DNA of 64,000 nt, taken from assembly GCA_038061715.1 (NCBI GenBank), contig JBBTYP010000003.1:12034-76033 (forward strand), read 5' to 3'. Each line of letters begins with the position of its first letter. Position 1 is the stretch's first letter. Below are positions 4,023-35,050 of the stretch, in pieces. A program made the translations under genes and the position numbers. The notes beneath the pieces were generated by a model, which saw only the letters and a list, made by a program, of their open reading frames with translations, was not told where the DNA came from and did not search any database. Source of the stretch: Patescibacteria group bacterium (GTDB lineage Bacteria > Patescibacteriota > Minisyncoccia > Phycocordibacterales > UBA918).

Positions 4023-4412
4023 CTATCGACTAAGCCGATCGCGGATCTCGCGCAGGAGTAAGACTTCCTCGGAGGGACTCTTTGGCACTTCGGCTGCCAC
4101 TTCCTTTTTAACGACAGCTGCTTGTGCCTTATTAATACCTTTAACCACCATAAAGATAGCTAAAGCTACGATGATAAAATCGAGCACTGACTGAACGAAG
4201 ACACCGTAAGTCATGGTGGCATCGCCAAGCCGGTAGGCCAGACCAGAAAAGTTTATTCCTCCCATGAGCAGACCGATTAACGGAGTGATGATGTCGGTCA
4301 CTAGTGAAGACACTATCTTTCCAAATGCGCCGCCGATAACCACCGCCACCGCCAGGTCGAGGACATTGCCCTTCATCGCAAAGGCTTTAAATTCTGCAAC
4401 AAATGCTTTCAT
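4023..4412 (-). CDS. mscL: Large-conductance mechanosensitive channel
   Basis: 129 aa; N-terminal [27 protein letters not shown]... canonical MscL TM1 signature. Confidence 0.9.
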
Positions 4413-4463
4413 AACTACAAATTAGTACTTATCTCGTAAAATAGATAGGTAGAGTATAGCTTA

Positions 4464-9312: not shown

Positions 9313-9768
9313 TTAGATAGCAGCTGACTCAAGACGGGCTTTGAATAAGCTTATGATTCCACTTTTCTCTAATTTATAATTCTTGCCGTTGAAAGCTATT
9401 GAAGTCCCCTCCTCTTTGGCTAAATAAACTAAAATTGGTACATATCTTACTGGTCCATCTTTACCGAAAAAAATTGCAGCTATTATCCTTAAGCCCCCTG
9501 ATTTATCGGATTTTGGTTTTGTAGTTACTTGTCGAAACTTACACACCTGCACTCTCCCGCCAGTCTCATCCACTTCTTCAAGTAAAACAGTTTTTGAGGT
9601 TGGCACATGGAATCTAGGGCTATTTCTTAATTCCCAAAACTTACCCACCAAAAATTTATGATGTGCTTTTACGTCGAGCTTAAGACTCTTTATCTTTTTT
9701 AAACGTTTTTCATCCAGCTTCAGGAACGGTCCTTCTGCAAATTCCATAAATTTAAGCAGCAAGCGCAA
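9313..9768 (-). CDS. Hypothetical protein, putative toxin partner (RelE/ParE-superfamily-like C-terminus), overlaps upstream gene by 17 nt
   Basis: 151 aa; GGLRIIAAIFFGKDGPVRYVPILVYLAK resembles RelE/HigB-type core; translational coupling with Panacea-like gene. Confidence 0.3.
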   Translation of the reverse strand: MRLLLKFMEFAEGPFLKLDEKRLKKIKSLKLDVKAHHKFLVGKFWELRNSPRFHVPTSKTVLLEEVDETGGRVQVCKFRQVTTKPKSDKSGGLRIIAAIFFGKDGPVRYVPILVYLAKEEGTSIAFNGKNYKLEKSGIISLFKARLESAAI

Positions 9769-10276
9769 ACAAACCTGTTTTCTGCAGTTTATTCAGAGAA
9801 ACCTCTTCGGGCTCCTCAGCAACATCCTCTTCATTAGAACGATATTGTGCGTTCTCAAAATCAACAAGGTGATGGTAATCAGCCATCAAATAAACTGGAT
9901 CCTGGTGAGCAAGGTGTACGATTTGATTAACATTCAATTCTGAATAGCGTAAACATGTATTTTCAATTGATTGAATTTTCTTTGCATCCAAAAACTTTAG
10001 CTCCATTTCTCCAGCACCTATAAAATTTCCATCTGTAATGGTGAGAAGATTCTCAGAAACTAACTCCTCGATTGCCTTTTGAGCAATTTTGTTTATTGGG
10101 GTTGGACCGAAGGTATTTTTAATATATGAAACACTAGTGAGTCTTTCATTAAATTTCTCAAAGTAATCAGCTTCACTGAAAAAGCACAATTTCCAAAGTT
10201 TTGTTTCTTTCAACATCCTTGGATGATTTGCTGCTATATACCAAATTAACTCTTTAAATTCTTCTTTCTTGCTCAT
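9752..10276 (-). CDS. Panacea-domain (DUF4065/SocA-like) putative antitoxin
   Basis: 174 aa; KLWKLCFFSEADYFEKFNERLTSVSYIKNTFGPTP matches KLqKLlYfa...GPv core of DUF4065. Confidence 0.45.
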   Translation of the reverse strand: MSKKEEFKELIWYIAANHPRMLKETKLWKLCFFSEADYFEKFNERLTSVSYIKNTFGPTPINKIAQKAIEELVSENLLTITDGNFIGAGEMELKFLDAKKIQSIENTCLRYSELNVNQIVHLAHQDPVYLMADYHHLVDFENAQYRSNEEDVAEEPEEVSLNKLQKTGLFALAA

Positions 10277-10506: not shown

Positions 10507-11649
10507 TTACCTGGCGGCTCGTATGATACGAGCCGAGCGAGCAAGAATGGAAGCTATCCGCTCAAGATCGTCAGCGACAACTGCACCGTGTTGGATCGTA
10601 AGTTGTTTCAGATCACCGGTTATATTTTCGAGACTGAACAACGCTGTCACTCGTTGGGCTCGTTCGTCCAGGGTTAAGATCAAGCTTTTGCCCTGATCCC
10701 AGGAATCAGAAGGTTTCTTCTGCCTTGAAATACCTGAGGCTCGACGATGGTGACCAGCCCGGGCCATGAGTTTTTGAACTCCCAGATTACCTTTCTTGTA
10801 ATCAATAAATGCTTGTACTTGCTCTTCATCAGGGAGATCAGCGACTTGTTTGATGATCGAAAACGGAATTGATGGATTATCGGCAACATGTTCAAGAGCA
10901 TGTTGACACAATCGTTCGCCAGCAATTTTTCGATTCGATAACCACACCGAATTGTTTTGCCCCAGACTCTCGGACACCTGCGCCTGTGTAAAACGGACGC
11001 CAGTATCTGGACAGGGTTCAAGCAGCCGTCTTGCCAGATCGATTTCTTCCCAAGGAGTATGTCCTTCTCGATTGAAATTGGCCACTGCCGATGTGAGCAG
11101 AGCCTCGTTGCGACCCTTGTCCTTAGACGTCTGCACTGTCGCCCGGAAAGGAACGCCAGCGATCTTACAGGCTCGAAGCCGTCGTTCGCCATCTCGCAGC
11201 TCATACTTCCAATCAAGATCGGGAGTTTCAACAACCAAACCGGGTTGAACCTGCCCCCGATGTCTGATCGAATCTGCCAAGGCATTGATACGCTCCTGAT
11301 CAAAATGTTTCCGCGGCTGATCTGGCAGTGGTGCGATTTGATCAACGGGGATCTCCAGCACTCGATCACCAAGAGTGATGTGCTGAAGCGGCGTCTCCAC
11401 CTCCTCTATAACGACACCTCCATGGAATTCACATAAACCAGTTTCATAATCTAACTGACCTTTGCTCCGATCATTTTCAGGGAGCAATAAACACCTTCGA
11501 CACAAACGCCATTTTGATTTGCATTTGCTGCGGCAGCAACCGTCCTGGTTTTTAGAGACAATGCTTGTTAGTTGACGACAAATATCCAAAGTCGCCGGTA
11601 CATGTGTAAACACGCACTTATGTGTCTCAATAACTCTCTGTTCAGACAT
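10507..11649 (-). CDS. Stand-alone ParB-like nuclease-domain (ParB/Srx) protein with Cys-rich N-terminal region; gene is GC-rich relative to flanks
   Basis: 380 aa; IPVDQIAPLPDQPRKHFDQERINALADSIRHRGQVQPGLVV...LRDGERRLRACKIAG is the ParB N-terminal domain signature (GERRxRA); N-terminal ~90 aa has many Cys (CCRSKCKSKWRLCRRC). Confidence 0.7.
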   Translation of the reverse strand: MSEQRVIETHKCVFTHVPATLDICRQLTSIVSKNQDGCCRSKCKSKWRLCRRCLLLPENDRSKGQLDYETGLCEFHGGVVIEEVETPLQHITLGDRVLEIPVDQIAPLPDQPRKHFDQERINALADSIRHRGQVQPGLVVETPDLDWKYELRDGERRLRACKIAGVPFRATVQTSKDKGRNEALLTSAVANFNREGHTPWEEIDLARRLLEPCPDTGVRFTQAQVSESLGQNNSVWLSNRKIAGERLCQHALEHVADNPSIPFSIIKQVADLPDEEQVQAFIDYKKGNLGVQKLMARAGHHRRASGISRQKKPSDSWDQGKSLILTLDERAQRVTALFSLENITGDLKQLTIQHGAVVADDLERIASILARSARIIRAAR

Positions 11650-13733: not shown

Positions 13734-13849
13734 CAGGTAAGTATAGCTGTTTTATTTTGTGGGGGTAAGTAACTAAGCGGAGATGGAGTTGGTCACGAAT
13801 CACTAAGTATATTTGTTCGGCTCCGCCTCCAAATCTACTAAGTGTTCTC

Positions 13850-13951
13850 GAATCTTACAGATTCTGTACACCTTGTCGCTATTTTATTTCTCCTCACTCA
13901 TAAAATTGCTGGCAAGGTCTTGCGAAATGGGTCCCACCCCATTTCTCACCC
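13850..13951. repeat. Copy 1 of a ~90-100 bp intergenic repeat family: palindrome GAATCTTACAGATTC, core ACAAAATAGCTGGCAAGG..CTTGCGAAA, second hairpin, terminal TCACCC
   Basis: Shares order and conserved blocks with 23498-23585 and 23905-23994; hairpin 2 here aaatggg-tcccac-cccattt. Confidence 0.7.
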
Positions 13952-14077
13952 AGCTCGTCTGTTCACTATCGCTCACATGACTGCGCTTTTCAACTCCAGC
14001 CGAACGACGCGCAGGCGTCGTTCTTCCTGGACACCATTAAAACAAAAGCCGCACATACGTGCGACTGATGTTTTATA

Positions 14078-14164
14078 TGGTGTCCAGGACTGGAGTTGAA
14101 CCAGCATGCCCGTGAAGGCGCTACCACCTCAAGGTAGTGCGTCTACCAATTTCGCCACCTGGAC
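14078..14164 (-). tRNA. tRNA-Leu (GAG), type II with long variable arm, CCA encoded
   Basis: RC folds: acceptor GTCCAGG/CCTGGAC, D-arm GCG-AAATTGGTAGA-CGC, anticodon stem CTACC/GGTAG loop TTGAGGT, T-loop TTCAACT. Confidence 0.85.
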
Positions 14165-16739: not shown

Positions 16740-17513
16740 TTACCAAAGAATCCTTACAATTTCTCCCAGTAACACATCCATATCTTGAGAAAAATTTACT
16801 TGTGTTTTTGTTGGCAAAACCTCCTTCTTTTGAATTGTTGTGTGAAGGTGACCATCAGCTATTTTCCGTGAGGAATTTTGAAGGTGATTAAATGTTTCCT
16901 TAATACTTTTTGCAGTTTTGAAATTGTTTGCTACTTTAGTAAAAGTCTGATACCCAAATATCGGAGCAACATGGTCTAACACGGTTCGTACCAGAAGTAT
17001 CGTGGAAATGTAATTCTTGTTTGCATAGTTAAAATTAATTTCTTCGCAAATTCGAACTAAGCGACTCAAATCGAAATCGTTACTTTTTACTACCTTAAGT
17101 TGGTTAATACGCTCTGGATCAATATAAATAGAGTTGTGATCTGGTGTTTGTTTTTGGGTGAGTGACTTAGCTGCTTCTGGTCTAGCTAATTTTGCGGCAT
17201 CACAATCAGAAAGCGCTAACTCAATTTCAATTAATCGGAGCCTGTCCGTTGGGATCATCCACGTGTCCTTCCGTACCAATCGTACTCGGGTGTCTTTCTT
17301 TAAAGTTGCACGAACAAAATCACTACGGATATTACCCAGTCCAGCAGAGGCGTATGCAAATTTCAAATCTTTGAGTGCAGCGTTACCACCACCGTACTTC
17401 GAAAAAAAATACAAAAAGCAAAGAATGCGTTTAGCTCGAGTATCGACATACTCGAGTGCGCATTTTGTAAACTCTGCCAAATCGTAACTATCTTCCATAA
17501 AGCATGTTCTCAA
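16740..17513 (-). CDS. Hypothetical protein, possible HEPN-like C-terminal domain (Rx4H motif RTVLDH); last gene of 4-gene cassette
   Basis: 257 aa; no recognisable family; ...ISTILLVRTVLDHVAPIFG... fits HEPN Rx4-6H; overlaps upstream gene by 26 nt. Confidence 0.3.
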   Translation of the reverse strand: MRTCFMEDSYDLAEFTKCALEYVDTRAKRILCFLYFFSKYGGGNAALKDLKFAYASAGLGNIRSDFVRATLKKDTRVRLVRKDTWMIPTDRLRLIEIELALSDCDAAKLARPEAAKSLTQKQTPDHNSIYIDPERINQLKVVKSNDFDLSRLVRICEEINFNYANKNYISTILLVRTVLDHVAPIFGYQTFTKVANNFKTAKSIKETFNHLQNSSRKIADGHLHTTIQKKEVLPTKTQVNFSQDMDVLLGEIVRILW

Positions 17514-17964
17514 AGTATTTTATTCCCTGCCTGTTTAAACGATATGGGGTTGGCAGACCATTTTTCCTTACTTTTGCACTTTCAAGGTAGGATCGAAGTT
17601 CCTTGAGCTTAGTCGAAGCGTTGGATGATTTAACTTTTATGCCCAGCTCAGAGGTGATGTGCTCTATATTGCCACTAGTTAGCCATATGTTGTTGAAGTA
17701 TTTATGCGAAATGTATAAACACATTAAGACCTTGGCCTCCATACTTTTAGCATCCAACACCTTCTGTTGCAGTAACTCGCTCTCTTCACAGTCGTTCACT
17801 CTGTTTGCAATTGCCAGAGTCATGTCTTGTTCATCCCGGTTTTCTGTGTCGTCTTTATTTATTGCTGGTGTTGTAGAAGAAAGTCCTCCCTCGAGAAGAC
17901 TTACTCGTTGTTCAAGGTCTTCAAGTCGTTGAAGAAAATCTGCTGGGGTAGTCATAACTTTCAC
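17488..17964 (-). CDS. Hypothetical protein (N-terminal coiled coil, C-terminal winged-helix-like region)
   Basis: 158 aa; translationally coupled within cassette. Confidence 0.3.
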   Translation of the reverse strand: MKVMTTPADFLQRLEDLEQRVSLLEGGLSSTTPAINKDDTENRDEQDMTLAIANRVNDCEESELLQQKVLDAKSMEAKVLMCLYISHKYFNNIWLTSGNIEHITSELGIKVKSSNASTKLKELRSYLESAKVRKNGLPTPYRLNRQGIKYFENMLYGR

Positions 17965-17966
17965 AA

Positions 17967-18533
17967 TTACCCAAACAACGCGACGATTTCGTCACGAATC
18001 TTATCAATACCTCCGGGCGCAAGGGAGAACACTGGTTTTTTTCCTTTACCCACACCTTTAGCCTGAATACCCTTAGCTTCTTTTAGATTTCGGCCAAGAT
18101 TGGAATCCCGGATACCCCATTCATCAGCTGCAACAGTAAATACCGTAATGGGTACTTCTTTTATATCAAGTCCAAATTTATATCCGGCAATTAACGCGTA
18201 GGCGAGATTACGTTGTTGGTCAGCAACTCCTCTGCCGACGGGTTTTATCGCGACATGAAGTTCGTCACCCTTCATTTCGTACAACTCATTGACCTGTTCT
18301 ACTGAGATTCCTAGCTGCGTTGCTAAGCGTCCCGAATCAAGAGCGGAACCTGGTAACGACTCCACTTTTGACAGACCTCCTACAGCAACACCACTGCTCG
18401 ATGTCGAGCTTTGAGCTTTAAGGAGATGTTCAAGCACGACTTCAAAAGCCTTTTCCTTTAACTCGGGTGAAGCGACTCCAGCGGCGTTCTGCGCTGCAGT
18501 AATTGCTTCTTCTAGATATTTGCGATCATCCAT
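17967..18533 (-). CDS. Hypothetical protein
   Basis: 188 aa; 2-nt gap to downstream gene; no recognisable motifs. Confidence 0.3.
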   Translation of the reverse strand: MDDRKYLEEAITAAQNAAGVASPELKEKAFEVVLEHLLKAQSSTSSSGVAVGGLSKVESLPGSALDSGRLATQLGISVEQVNELYEMKGDELHVAIKPVGRGVADQQRNLAYALIAGYKFGLDIKEVPITVFTVAADEWGIRDSNLGRNLKEAKGIQAKGVGKGKKPVFSLAPGGIDKIRDEIVALFG

Positions 18534-18544
18534 ATTTTTAGATC

Positions 18545-18991
18545 TTATTTATTAAGTAATACTTCAAAAAAATCCTCGCCCGATTGAGTAAGATCGTAGG
18601 TATTTTTACCTTTTTGTCTGACTAATCCGTCCTTGATGGCACGACTAAGGTACACCGGAGCATATGCTCCGTGGAACTTACCTTCCTTCCAACCCTGCTG
18701 AATATCACTAACCTGCACGTCAGTTTTAATAAGGATTTTTTCGTTATAGCCTACGATTGCCGCTACACGCTCCTGACCGTTTTCTAATGAGTTATTTCTG
18801 GCTAATTCAGGCAGTGTGATTTTTTTCTGCGTCTGCCGTATTGTAGGGGTTGGAGACAAAGATTGTTCGCTCCCAGACGTGAGTGCGTCAATCTTTACAT
18901 GCAGTGCTTGTAAAGAGGCTTTTATTTCCTTAAGTGTTTGATTGATATTCTCCATACTGTTTTGTAATACTAGGTTTATAGGGTCCGACAT
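18545..18991 (-). CDS. Hypothetical protein (N-terminal coiled coil), first gene of cassette
   Basis: 148 aa; preceded by 458-bp non-coding region. Confidence 0.3.
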   Translation of the reverse strand: MSDPINLVLQNSMENINQTLKEIKASLQALHVKIDALTSGSEQSLSPTPTIRQTQKKITLPELARNNSLENGQERVAAIVGYNEKILIKTDVQVSDIQQGWKEGKFHGAYAPVYLSRAIKDGLVRQKGKNTYDLTQSGEDFFEVLLNK

Positions 18992-23497: not shown

Positions 23498-23585
23498 GAA
23501 TCTTACAGATTCAGTTCAGGTTGTCGCCATTTTTACAAAATAGCTGGCAACCTCTTGCGAAATGATATTAAGTCATTTCTCACCC
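23498..23585. repeat. Copy 2 of intergenic repeat family (GAATCTTACAGATTC ... ACAAAATAGCTGGCAACCTCTTGCGAAA ... hairpin gaaatga-tattaag-tcatttc ... TCACCC)
   Basis: Conserved blocks identical to copy 1; both hairpins retained through compensatory changes. Confidence 0.7.
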
Positions 23586-23711
23586 CACTCGTTGCGGTCC
23601 TCGGCTACATTTCATTTCGCCTGCGGGCTTCGCCGCGACTCGGTTCAAATCCTATTAAAAGCTACAACGGCAAAGACCCAGAAAGAATGCTCTTTCTGGG
23701 TCTGCCATTGT

Positions 23712-23783
23712 GCTCTCACCAGGAATCGGACCTGGATCACCAATTCCGCAAACTGGTATTCTATCCATTAAACTATGAGAGCG
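23712..23783 (-). tRNA. tRNA-Arg-like with anticodon GCG and non-canonical T-loop (TCCGATT); possibly a pseudogene or unusual isoacceptor
   Basis: RC folds: acceptor GCTCTCA/TGAGAGC, D-arm GTTT-AATGGATA-GAAT (paralogous to tRNA-Arg TCT at 16480), anticodon stem CCAGT/ATTGG loop TTGCGGA; C at position 55. Confidence 0.5.
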
Positions 23784-23904
23784 ATGGGAGGGATGTTACC
23801 ACAAGAAATAAGGCGCGTCACCCCCTTACTTAGACAAATCAGTACTTATATGGAAGCCAGCTTATATGTATAGTGCGAATGCAGTTTAAGGATGTTTACA
23901 TACA

Positions 23905-23994
23905 GGGGGCAAGTACACCTTGTCGCTATGTTTGTTCGTAAACTCACAAAATAGCTGGCAAGGCCTTGCGAAAGTCTCCCAGACTTTCTCACCC
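23905..23994. repeat. Copy 3 of intergenic repeat family (lacks 5' palindrome; GTACACCTTGTCGCTATG ... ACAAAATAGCTGGCAAGGCCTTGCGAAA ... hairpin gaaagtc-tccca-gactttc ... TCACCC)
   Basis: Abuts stop codon of minus-strand gene 23994-24464. Confidence 0.65.
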
Positions 23995-24464
23995 TAGAAA
24001 CCGAATAATTCAAGCACCTTCAAAAACAAAGGTTCATGAATGACTTCTTCAGGCAGGCGCTGCTCTAAGATACTTTCCACGTCATCAATGTGTTCGGGTG
24101 GGATTGGTAATACTAAAAGTGGTATGGATTTGCGGTGAGTGCGAATTAAGAGTTGCGGCCCACGCGGATCTTCCTCATCAAGGTGGTAAGCGTCGAGAGT
24201 TGAATAAGGAAACAGCTCATCCTCTACCTTCACTCCTCGCACACTAACACCATAGGGCACAATCGACGGTCTTTGCGCTGCCGACATCCCTAACACTCCG
24301 CCGGCGAGTCCTAATAAAAGGGCAAACATAACATTATCAAGTAGAATCGCAGTAACGACACAAGCGATTACAACTACTGCCAACGCCAAAAACCAGTCGT
24401 TGCCTTTTTCGACATGGTGATGTTGCGGTGCTTCCCAAAATATTCCCCGAACAGCTGGTTCCAT
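23994..24464 (-). CDS. Hypothetical membrane protein (2 TM helices plus possible bacterial PH-like domain)
   Basis: Start moved to internal ATG (MEPAVRG...) because the longer ORF would run up to the tRNA-Ser gene; TATTAT box directly upstream. Confidence 0.4.
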   Translation of the reverse strand: MEPAVRGIFWEAPQHHHVEKGNDWFLALAVVVIACVVTAILLDNVMFALLLGLAGGVLGMSAAQRPSIVPYGVSVRGVKVEDELFPYSTLDAYHLDEEDPRGPQLLIRTHRKSIPLLVLPIPPEHIDDVESILEQRLPEEVIHEPLFLKVLELFGF

Positions 24465-24565
24465 TTGTTTTATAATATCACAAAGCCAGTGTACATTTTG
24501 ACCAAGTTCTGTTACTATCTCGCGACAAACGACCGCCAGCAACCACTGCTGTCGGAAGCACATAC

Positions 24566-24652
24566 GGAGGGATGGCTGAGTGGTTGAAGGCGGCGGTCTT
24601 GAAAACCGTTAAGGGTGAAAGCTCTTCGAGGGTTCGAATCCCTCTCCCTCCG
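24566..24652 (+). tRNA. tRNA-Ser (TGA), type II
   Basis: Acceptor GGAGGGA/TCCCTCC, D-arm GCT-GAGTGGTTGAA-GGC, anticodon loop CTTGAAA, long variable arm, T-arm GAGGG-TTCGAAT-CCCTC. Confidence 0.85.
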
Positions 24653-24837
24653 CGAGTACAAAATAGCGCCTTTAGGTGCTTTTTTGTTCGCGGAGGGAGG
24701 CCTAGCTTTTCTCTAGAAAAGTGTCAGGCGGATTCGAAAAGGTTGCCAGCCCGGTTATGAACGAAGTGAAATAACCGAGCGACAACCTGTACTGAACATG
24801 TAATGTTCGAATCCTGGACAGGCCGTGAGTACAAAAT

Positions 24838-24861
24838 AGCGCCCGTATGGGCGCTTTTTTG
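24838..24861. terminator. Bidirectional intrinsic terminator (agcgccc-gtat-gggcgct-tttttt) preceded by motif gagtacaaaatagcgcc that also occurs at 24655
   Basis: Perfect 7-bp GC stem with T6 on plus strand and A-tract on the other side. Confidence 0.65.
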
Positions 24862-24880
24862 TTTGCTTGTTTGAGCTGAA

Positions 24881-34866: not shown

Positions 34867-34940
34867 CCGCCCTTAGCTCAGTCGGTAGCTTGGGGAGCAT
34901 CCCATGCTTCCCAACCCTTGATTAAGGAGATGGGTCGATA
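34867..34940 (+). pseudogene. Truncated/rearranged copy of tRNA-Lys 5' half (22 nt identical to tRNA-Lys 5' end, 26-nt hairpin insertion, retained anticodon-loop segment, no T-arm)
   Basis: ccgcccttagctcagtcggtag + cttggggagcatcccatgcttcccaa + cccttgattaaggagatgg, compared with the intact gene 27 bp downstream. Confidence 0.6.
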
Positions 34941-34960: not shown

Positions 34961-35033
34961 CCGCCCTTAGCTCAGTCGGTAGAGCGGCTCCCTTTTAAGG
35001 AGATGGTCCCAGGTTCGAGCCCTGGAGGGCGGA
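34961..35033 (+). tRNA. tRNA-Lys (TTT)
   Basis: Acceptor CCGCCCT/AGGGCGG (C1-G72), D-arm GCTC-AGTCGGTA-GAGC, anticodon loop CTTTTAA, T-arm CCAGG-TTCGAGC-CCTGG. Confidence 0.8.
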
Positions 35034-35050
35034 CAAGTGAAAAGCCCCAG

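Follow-up and report, generated by a model that had tools for sequence, protein, structure and literature searches.

A widespread family of three-hairpin repeats in Patescibacteria, probably small non-autonomous insertion elements

Results

A repeat family with three hairpins

We describe a repeat family that is both real and widespread. Its core of ~97 nt forms three hairpins (P1, P2 and P3, in an alignment of 28 copies), and the features set out below make it probable that the family consists of small non-autonomous insertion elements of Patescibacteria (Paceibacteria/'Kaiserbacteria'-type genomes).

The window, by which we mean the whole 64 kb stretch of DNA that was analyzed, contains four copies. 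Three of these had been reported in a first-pass annotation, and all are found on the plus strand where it placed them; their shared block, GCTGGCAANNNCTTGCGAAA, is found three times in the window, where chance would give 0.16 occurrences. The fourth copy (24714–24812, minus strand) was absent from that annotation. Copy 1 (13852–13948, plus strand; covariance model score 86.8 bits) has the full core, with boundaries taken from the empty sites of relatives: P1 occupies 13850–13864, the outer GA being contributed by the flank, P2 13870–13918 and P3 13921–13948. Copy 2 (23500–23582, plus strand; 92.2 bits), delimited in like manner, also has the full core and represents a short-loop P2 subtype (CAGGTTG/CAACCT). 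Copy 3 (23893–23993, plus strand; 72.7 bits) retains an intact P2 and P3 with a decayed P1, and at its 3′-end it directly adjoins the stop codon (23994–23996) of a minus-strand ORF (23994–24563). Copy 4 (core 24721–24807, minus strand; model match 45 bits, E about 1e-7) is divergent and belongs to a form that we call type B: P1 (24807–24793) and P2 (24790 to about 24741) are kept, the upper stem of P2 being altered on both strands to GCTCGGTTAT/ATAACCGGGC, and P3 is swapped for a piece resembling a tRNA 3′-end, TTCGAATCCGCCTGACAC (24738–24721), which pairs with GGATTCGAA in the 5′-flank.

Three tRNA genes, each called by ARAGORN and Rfam, are convergent with copies: tRNA-Leu(GAG) (14078–14164, minus strand) with copy 1, tRNA-Arg(GCG) (23710–23782, minus strand), which lies 5′ of copy 3, with copy 2, and tRNA-Ser(UGA) (24566–24653, plus strand) with copy 4. 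Among the other genes of the window are further scattered tRNAs, ruvX, a gene for a tRNA-binding protein, pilMNO, rluD and rplS; the best relatives of its PilM are named Kaiserbacteria, Paceibacterota or Parcubacteria, and this protein is also encoded by a 322 kb contig from Hainich groundwater.

Covariation maintains the fold

P1 is a stem of 5–7 bp with a TAC loop inside CTTACAG. P2 has the form aCCTTG-tc-GCTATTTT…AAAATAGC-tgg-CAAGGt: a lower stem of 6 bp, an invariant TC/TGG internal loop, an 8 bp stem (GCTATTTT/AAAATAGC) and a terminal loop of 3–17 nt. P3 reads TG-C-GAAAnnn…nnnTTTC-T-CA. Changes are confined to the stems, where they compensate one another; the loops, the internal loop of P2 and the linkers (CTGTnCA and TC) are near-invariant. 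The core has no coding capacity.

Compensatory change is seen in all 14 P2 pairs of a 43-copy alignment and in 13 of the 14 in a 104-copy alignment. For the whole fold, 94 distinct copies give pairing in 96.3% of cells and compensatory change at 25 of 29 pairs, these counts being made on an alignment that was fitted to the covariance model. None of 500 shuffles matched the observed pairing values, and slid registers came nowhere near them. The proposal that structure is kept over sequence, made from the first three copies, is thus supported by covariation in additional copies. Two of the hairpins on which it rested are genuine. The palindrome GAATCTTACAGATTC is P1, with a covarying stem (for example CTTCT/AGAAG, CTCCT/AGGAG and CCGCT/AGCGG), and the hairpin with an ever-changing 7 bp stem is P3 (GAAAnnn…nnnTTTC), the inner pairs of which covary across the 94 distinct copies. 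The remaining one, GCAAGG/CCTTGC, has to be redrawn: it shows no compensatory pairs and is paired in 70% of cells, much like column shuffles. Its bases are really the 3′-strand of P2, and their partner is the upstream CCTTG/AGGTTG block.

In folded RNAs G·U pairs are usually far commoner than A·C mismatches. Here the two number 34 and 49, respectively, in 2659 cells (p = 0.12), and since G·U is no commoner than A·C neither strand is favored; the three hairpins form equally well on either.

Distribution and novelty

A scan for an exact pattern, using one genome per species, returned 45 loci. The rest of the element was present in ~31 of these, Patescibacteria MAGs or 'uncultured bacterium' bins throughout; the remaining loci (Chryseobacterium, Streptococcus and others) held the short pattern alone, within genes. 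A covariance model built from the 28-copy alignment found 39 further copies in genome loci and at least 79 in a metagenome sample. At E<1e-8 it gave 104 matches, 94 of them distinct. Additional copies therefore exist in related genomes, and they covary; among named genomes the true matches were Patescibacteria MAGs in every case.

Elsewhere the copies can be dense, with up to four in an 8 kb locus and up to six within 1.4 kb. The core is ~85–95% conserved between genomes in which PilM is just ~65–70% identical, and the two P2 subtypes (GG/CC vs CC/GG) are found together in many genomes. Strong conservation of the core and co-occurrence of subtypes would also be expected of a functional RNA or DNA site under selection.

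The first-pass annotation recognized no described family, and the searches agree. Against Rfam 15 only tRNAs reach the gathering score in the entire window, and permissive E-value scans over copies 1–4 gave chance-level matches of at most 21 bits on the elements. Literature searches, covering repeats, MITEs and sRNAs and including Saccharibacteria, turned up no account of such a repeat in Patescibacteria; the best 15 of 104 literature matches to the sequence blocks were all unrelated eukaryotic papers. The family, together with several companion modules, appears to be undescribed. As for a phage or plasmid origin, five pattern matches in viral contigs were due to chance and the covariance model had no match there.

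Copies are gained, lost and decayed

Four syntenic relatives of the window (L056–L059; PilM 72–84% identical) share its gene order (156-aa gene, tRNA-Arg, ruvX … rluD, rplS, tRNA-Leu … Nudix) and differ in the copies that they carry. Compared with these four, copies 1 and 4 occur in the window only; copy 2 is missing from L057 and L058, and copy 3 is common to the window and L057 and missing from L058 and L059.

Empty sites are base-exact for copies 1, 2 and 3, and none of these three filled/empty pairs shows a target duplication. For copy 1 the filled site, …GAGCTGGG|element|TCGAGAACAC…, corresponds in L056, L057 and L059 to …GAGCTGGGGG|TCGAGAACAC… with nothing between. The empty site of copy 2 (L058) is …GAGTGGGG|GTC|GAGCGAATGAG…, and at those of copy 3 TGTATTATTTGGCGCA (L058) or the near-identical GCTATTATTTGGCGCA (L059) comes immediately after the stop codon. 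The exactness of these sites defines the unit as P1 to …TCTCA and means that it brings no promoter. On the element strand, no promoter-like site was found upstream of copies 1–3.

Single copies also change after they have arisen. The orthologue of copy 3 in L057 has an intact P1, decayed in the window, and a different P3 stem; L059 carries an independent type-B insertion at another point of the same spacer. Other arrangements include tandem copies (L031, L045), head-to-head copies (L001, L017), copies truncated to P1 or to P1 and P2 (L041, L022) and nested copies. Gain and loss, decay, mixed orientation (see below), strand symmetry and the variety of arrangements together lead us to regard the family as an interspersed non-autonomous mobile repeat with its structure under selection.

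For copies 1 and 2 there is an additional consideration. Two short modules, X and Y, are contiguous at the empty sites, and both copies lie exactly at their junction, so that these copies could have spread by gene conversion between X/Y modules instead of by transposition. Module X (GGTCACGAATCACTAAGTATAT…ACTAAGTGTTCTCGA; 13791–13851, plus strand) forms the 5′-flank of copy 1 and module Y (CCnCTCG, a hairpin and CATGACTGCGG) follows at 13949–13988. Module X is present at the copy 1 empty sites of L056, L057 and L059, in L011 and L024, and in L058 between tRNA-Arg and ruvX (X/Y region about 4255–4460). Both modules also lie downstream of tRNA-Leu in L056, L057 and L059.

Footprints of insertion

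Of 112 testable copies, 26 have significant flanking direct repeats. Twelve full copies have a direct repeat of 19–89 bp that begins exactly at the P3 boundary (…TCTCA|), its partner ending 0–60 nt before P1; read on the opposite strand, most of these duplications repeat the beginning of the gene next after the element. Along the gene strand one then meets pseudo 5′-end, element, filler and true 5′-end, in that order. Examples come from an msrA-like gene (MxKKAVIAGGCFWG), where 35 of 35 bases are identical in L010 and a like arrangement is found in L003; a comparable arrangement with a diverged repeat, in L057, falls outside the 12. Duplicated starts were also found in GH1-like genes (MKKFPEGFYWG in L001, FPKDFLWG in L040), in a P-loop kinase-like gene (MIVGITGSLGGGK in L157) and in a gene that we read as RNase HII-like (VVGIDEA in L166), and the first 25 nt of tRNA-Lys are duplicated in L075 and L108.

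The msrA genes deserve a separate description. In three genomes (L010 3250–3450, L003 3540–3720 and L057 1290–1540) the element stands upstream of msrA, and upstream of the element in turn is a pseudo copy of the gene's first ~13 codons (…GGCFW). The upstream copy in L010 opens a 50-codon ORF that runs through the element and stops 10 nt before the true ATG.

The P3 end is set precisely against the target, often after a run of G; the P1 side varies. Among the 92 copies with the end …TCTCAC, the next bases are CC(A/C/G/T) in 24, TCG in 15 and GGT in 7, some of the flanks so counted being other repeat modules. The simplest reading of the duplications would be insertion with a long staggered duplication of variable length; those not spanning a gene start would have been lost to selection, such that only spanning events survive. 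Differences between the flanking repeats, judged by eye, are not concentrated at adenines, which disposes of a DGR target.

Type-B copies (copy 4 of the window, L013, L023, L045, L059 and an array in L075) retain P1 and P2, but where P3 would stand they have the 3′-end of the neighboring convergent tRNA, copied in sense orientation. The copied segment pairs with a reverse-complement fragment of the tRNA 3′-end on the 5′-flank, and direct repeats of the tRNA 3′-end enclose each copy. For copy 4 the repeat includes the trailer and terminator: positions 24804–24870 (plus strand) hold a pseudo tRNA 3′-end (GTTCGAATCCTGGACAGGCCG) and, after it, the tRNA-Ser trailer and terminator a second time, which together with the real tRNA-Ser trailer form a direct repeat around the element.

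No candidate for a mobilizing enzyme was found beside the copies. Among 402 ORFs within 3 kb there was no transposase, integrase or reverse transcriptase, clustering of these ORFs revealed no recurrent nuclease or transposase family, and no RAYT-like, TnpA, TnpB or Y1 (HUH) gene was seen in the 8–20 kb copy loci. Because such a gene is found neither near the copies nor in viral contigs, the mobilizing activity is hypothetical. L045 (734–1414, minus strand) and L059 (13618–14274, plus strand) encode homologous proteins of ~220 aa that are 26% identical and carry an HTH_23 domain at the N terminus, with a C-terminal part that we presume may resemble a LAGLIDADG-type motif; each gene adjoins a tRNA gene. 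As mobilizing genes these were set aside for want of a consistent link with copies.

Genomic context and a possible role in flanking transcripts

By a crude ORF call, 99 of 115 unique copies lie outside ORFs of at least 110 aa, and the genes that flank the copies are unrelated to one another. Both neighbors are antisense to the element in 39 cases and sense in 21. Of 106 downstream neighbors, 68 lie on the opposite strand and 38 on the same strand (p = 0.005), which means that the reverse complement of the element usually follows the 3′-end of a gene. Twenty-eight of the 115 copies are within 300 nt of a tRNA; in 19 of these the tRNA is downstream and convergent, and in L075 each of four tRNAs has one convergent copy.

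These biases speak for a reading in which the element is a cis-acting RNA module of flanking transcripts, its spread by recombination being secondary. Read on the opposite strand, it usually lies between one gene or tRNA and the next, where it would be part of the former's 3′ UTR and the latter's 5′ UTR; there the hairpins would serve to stop exonucleases, mark sites of processing or insulate neighboring transcripts, as do REP/BIME sequences in E. coli. The placement of copy 3 right at a stop codon and the strong conservation of sequence between genomes fit such a role as well as the convergent tRNAs do. However, one third of copies are oriented the other way, orthologous genes of close relatives lack the element, copies decay, no hairpin is followed by a U-tract on either strand and neither strand has an excess of G·U. 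On balance we hold this reading to be rather unlikely. The narrower suggestion of a cis-regulatory leader, offered in the first-pass annotation beside a small RNA and a REP/MITE-like element, fails on mixed orientation and unrelated flanking genes; of the three it is the REP/MITE-like element that is best supported.

Other explanations

Insertion might instead proceed by a template-directed, target-primed process: either as a SINE-like retroposon or by copy-choice at intermediates of replication or transcription. Copying from the …UCUCAC(CC) end of the element would be primed by a G-rich 3′-end within the first 20–45 nt of a transcribed gene (…TGGGG, …AAAGG, …GCCGG), resolution would take place near the gene start, and type-B copies would result from a like process at tRNA T-loops. 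If true, this would account for the precise junction, the variable filler and the 19–89 bp duplications from a start codon or tRNA 5′-end, and would amount to a form of mobility undescribed in bacteria. The likeness to SINE/LINE insertion extends to one precise junction (the P3 end) and another that is variable with filler, and to variable-length target duplications (19–89 bp) or small deletions; the element differs in having no A-rich tail, in having no known reverse transcriptase to draw on and in that its truncated copies keep the 5′-part (P1 or P1 and P2) and not the 3′-part. According to a survey from 2026, the 95 complete Patescibacteria genomes examined contain no group II introns (PMC13011429); this absence, together with the retention of the 5′-part in truncated copies, disfavors a route through reverse transcriptase. 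We think a target-primed process quite unlikely.

Multi-copy genes for a trans-acting small RNA, transcribed from the plus strand as P1-P2-P3 by a promoter just upstream of P1, are a very improbable explanation. Boxes resembling TAnnnT (TATAAT, TAATAAT, TATATA, CGTACTT) do lie 3–5 nt upstream of P1 in several copies, and three hairpins with invariant loops resemble a protein-binding RNA. Set against this, comparison of filled and empty sites puts the start of the insert at P1 and leaves the promoter out, the window copies have no promoter-like site upstream on that strand, there is no fixed terminator and G·U is not enriched over A·C; loss in close relatives would also be odd for a needed RNA.

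Just as improbable is a duplex DNA binding site, or array of sites, for a regulator or nucleoid protein, with the near-palindromic P2 (GCTATTTT…AAAATAGC) and P1 as operators. P1 and P2 are palindromic, invariant bases stand at defined positions and pairing is strand-symmetric, all as would be expected of such a site. Yet entire stem arms are exchanged for unrelated complementary sequence, as in the upper P2 arm of copy 4 and the varied stems of P3, and the P2 loop ranges from 3 to 17 nt. A protein that reads duplex DNA would not tolerate such changes, which points to an extruded hairpin.

Several further candidates can be dismissed. A sigma-54 promoter (TGGCA-N-TTGC in CTGGCAAGGCCTTGC) has its GG-to-GC spacing one base short and its bases in a covarying stem; an intrinsic terminator is excluded by the missing U-tract at all three hairpins, with both strands checked; and a short protein is incompatible with P2 loops of 3, 11, 14, 15, 16 and 17 nt, which are out of frame. 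ARAGORN finds no tRNA-like gene or tmRNA at the copies, the tRNA-like pieces being 3′-ends only, and remnants of group I introns do not fit the element. Nor does a TIGR (Tas-associated) array: TIGR guide arrays of CPR bacteria are tandem, with 36-nt processed RNAs and box C/D-like repeats (PMC12045711), a description that a dispersed 97-nt unit of three hairpins does not fit.

Discussion

Under the mobile-element reading that we prefer, the hairpins and invariant bases would be the recognition target of a hypothetical enzyme acting in trans, most likely on single-stranded DNA, as for elements of the IS200/IS605 or REP/RAYT type. The need for recognition would hold the sequence constant while single copies arise, decay and vanish. 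As observed, some insertions lack a duplication and others have a target duplication of 19–89 bp, which mostly rebuilds the start of the interrupted gene; the form truncated to P1 and P2 is fused to tRNA 3′-end copies beside tRNA genes that are convergent with it. A role in the cell, for instance in buffering convergent transcription or in stabilizing mRNA or pre-tRNA ends, would be secondary.

In its behavior the element seems most like REP/BIME sequences, miniature elements derived from IS200/IS605 (PATEs) and Rickettsia palindromic elements (RPEs), but at least one defining feature of each is absent or not clearly matched and for this reason we do not file it under any of them. Like REPs, BIMEs and REPINs it is extragenic and multi-copy, with hairpins that show compensatory stem changes; as with REP/BIME, copies are often at gene 3′-ends and between convergent genes, form mosaics with other short modules (here X, Y and the CTCGCAAAGACG block) and occasionally occur as head-to-head pairs. 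However, a REP is a single palindrome of 20–40 nt with a 5′ GTAG, whereas the element has ~97 nt, three different hairpins and no GTAG; REPINs are mobilized by RAYT, a relative of HUH Y1 transposases, whereas no RAYT-like gene was seen near the copies; and REP families are lineage-specific, whereas the core is near-constant across many lineages of Patescibacteria.

With PATEs the element shares the lack of terminal inverted repeats, different hairpins near its two ends, oriented insertion that may favor a short neighboring sequence, the absence of duplication at three well-defined sites and strand-symmetric conservation of hairpins, as expected of single-stranded DNA substrates. Peel-and-paste transposition does not, however, make long and variable flanking duplications such as those of 12 copies here, the flanking 'target' is inconstant (CCC, TCG or GGT after …TCTCAC) and neither TnpA nor TnpB was found nearby. 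RPEs are likewise structured repeats (~100–150 bp) in reduced genomes of host-dependent bacteria, inserted in or beside genes, RNA genes included, without destroying them. They do so in-frame, as part of the protein; the element lies outside the functional ORF and the gene is saved by duplication of its 5′-end.

Other systems are more distant. The ends of the element (…CTTACAG… on the P1 side, …TTTCTCAC on the P3 side) are not reverse complements, as those of a MITE would be, and in place of a short duplication of fixed length there is none at three sites and one of 19–89 bp in twelve copies. The consensus has no RYYYAAC…GTTRRRY boxes of an integron attC site and forms three separate hairpins rather than one long imperfect one, and its flanks are housekeeping genes in mixed orientation, not cassette arrays. 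A riboswitch or leader would precede genes on its own strand; here a same-strand downstream neighbor is the minority and the genes are unrelated. Given ends that are not inverted repeats and duplications that are inconstant in length and presence, no known transposition chemistry fits cleanly.

In Patescibacteria, whose genomes are small (~1 Mb) and leave little room between genes, dense, highly conserved structured repeats are nonetheless maintained. The covariance model lets annotators mask or label such regions, and the element accounts for spurious ORFs and for pseudo starts of genes, among them the repeated N-termini of msrA and a GH1-like gene and the repeated ends of tRNAs. For uncultured lineages it also provides a marker of recent genomic change. 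What raises the possibility of a new mechanism is the rebuilding of gene starts by variable duplications, along with the tRNA 3′-end chimeras; if the mobilizing mechanism is new, it would add a mode of mobility and an enzyme to a clade in which almost no mobile-element biology is known.

Companion modules and other features of the window

Copies abut other repeat modules: X, Y and TCGCAAAGACG…CGTCTTTGCGAGCG. Another repeat family, TCGC(A/G)AAGACG … CGTCTTTGCGAGCG, frequently with GGATTGC/GCAATCC blocks, often adjoins the P3 end and follows …TCTCAC in 15 of 115 copies; it was located in the element's 3′-flank in L029 (4380–4480), L045 (6795–6880), L096, L098, L085, L068 and L101.

Just past the intrinsic terminator of several tRNA genes, the 3′-end of the gene (T-loop to discriminator/CCA) is repeated in reverse complement, which places the terminator at the tip of a palindrome of ~50 bp. 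These inverted copies are sometimes split by a small hairpin and are kept in relatives that lack the element. Those of the window belong to tRNA-Leu (13989–14037, plus strand, just past the tRNA terminator) and tRNA-Ser (24686–24700); tRNA-Arg has one in L057 (8440–8460) and L058 (4255–4275). The tRNA-Leu copy consists of TTCAACTCCAG (13989–13999), a 27-nt insert with a small hairpin and CCTGGACACCA (14027–14037), and is found also in L056, L057 and L059, all of which are without copy 1. Its presence at empty sites rules out a product of insertion, so that inverted tRNA 3′-ends are a separate feature of these tRNA loci. In L056 and L059 a Y-X block is flanked by inverted and direct copies of the tRNA-Leu 3′-end.

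Elsewhere in the window, a partial and interrupted duplicate of the 5′-half of tRNA-Lys (34869–34935) lies upstream of the real tRNA-Lys (34961–35034). Four consecutive minus-strand ORFs (257, 158, 188 and 148 aa; 16740–18991) without a Pfam match adjoin tRNA-Val and tRNA-Arg(tct); syntenic relatives have different genes there, which marks the region as a variable island. Lastly, two minus-strand genes that lie close together, one antitoxin-like with a SocA/Panacea domain (9752–10276) and one encoding a ParB N-terminal domain and a Cys-rich N-terminus (10507–11649), may be part of a mobile or defense island.
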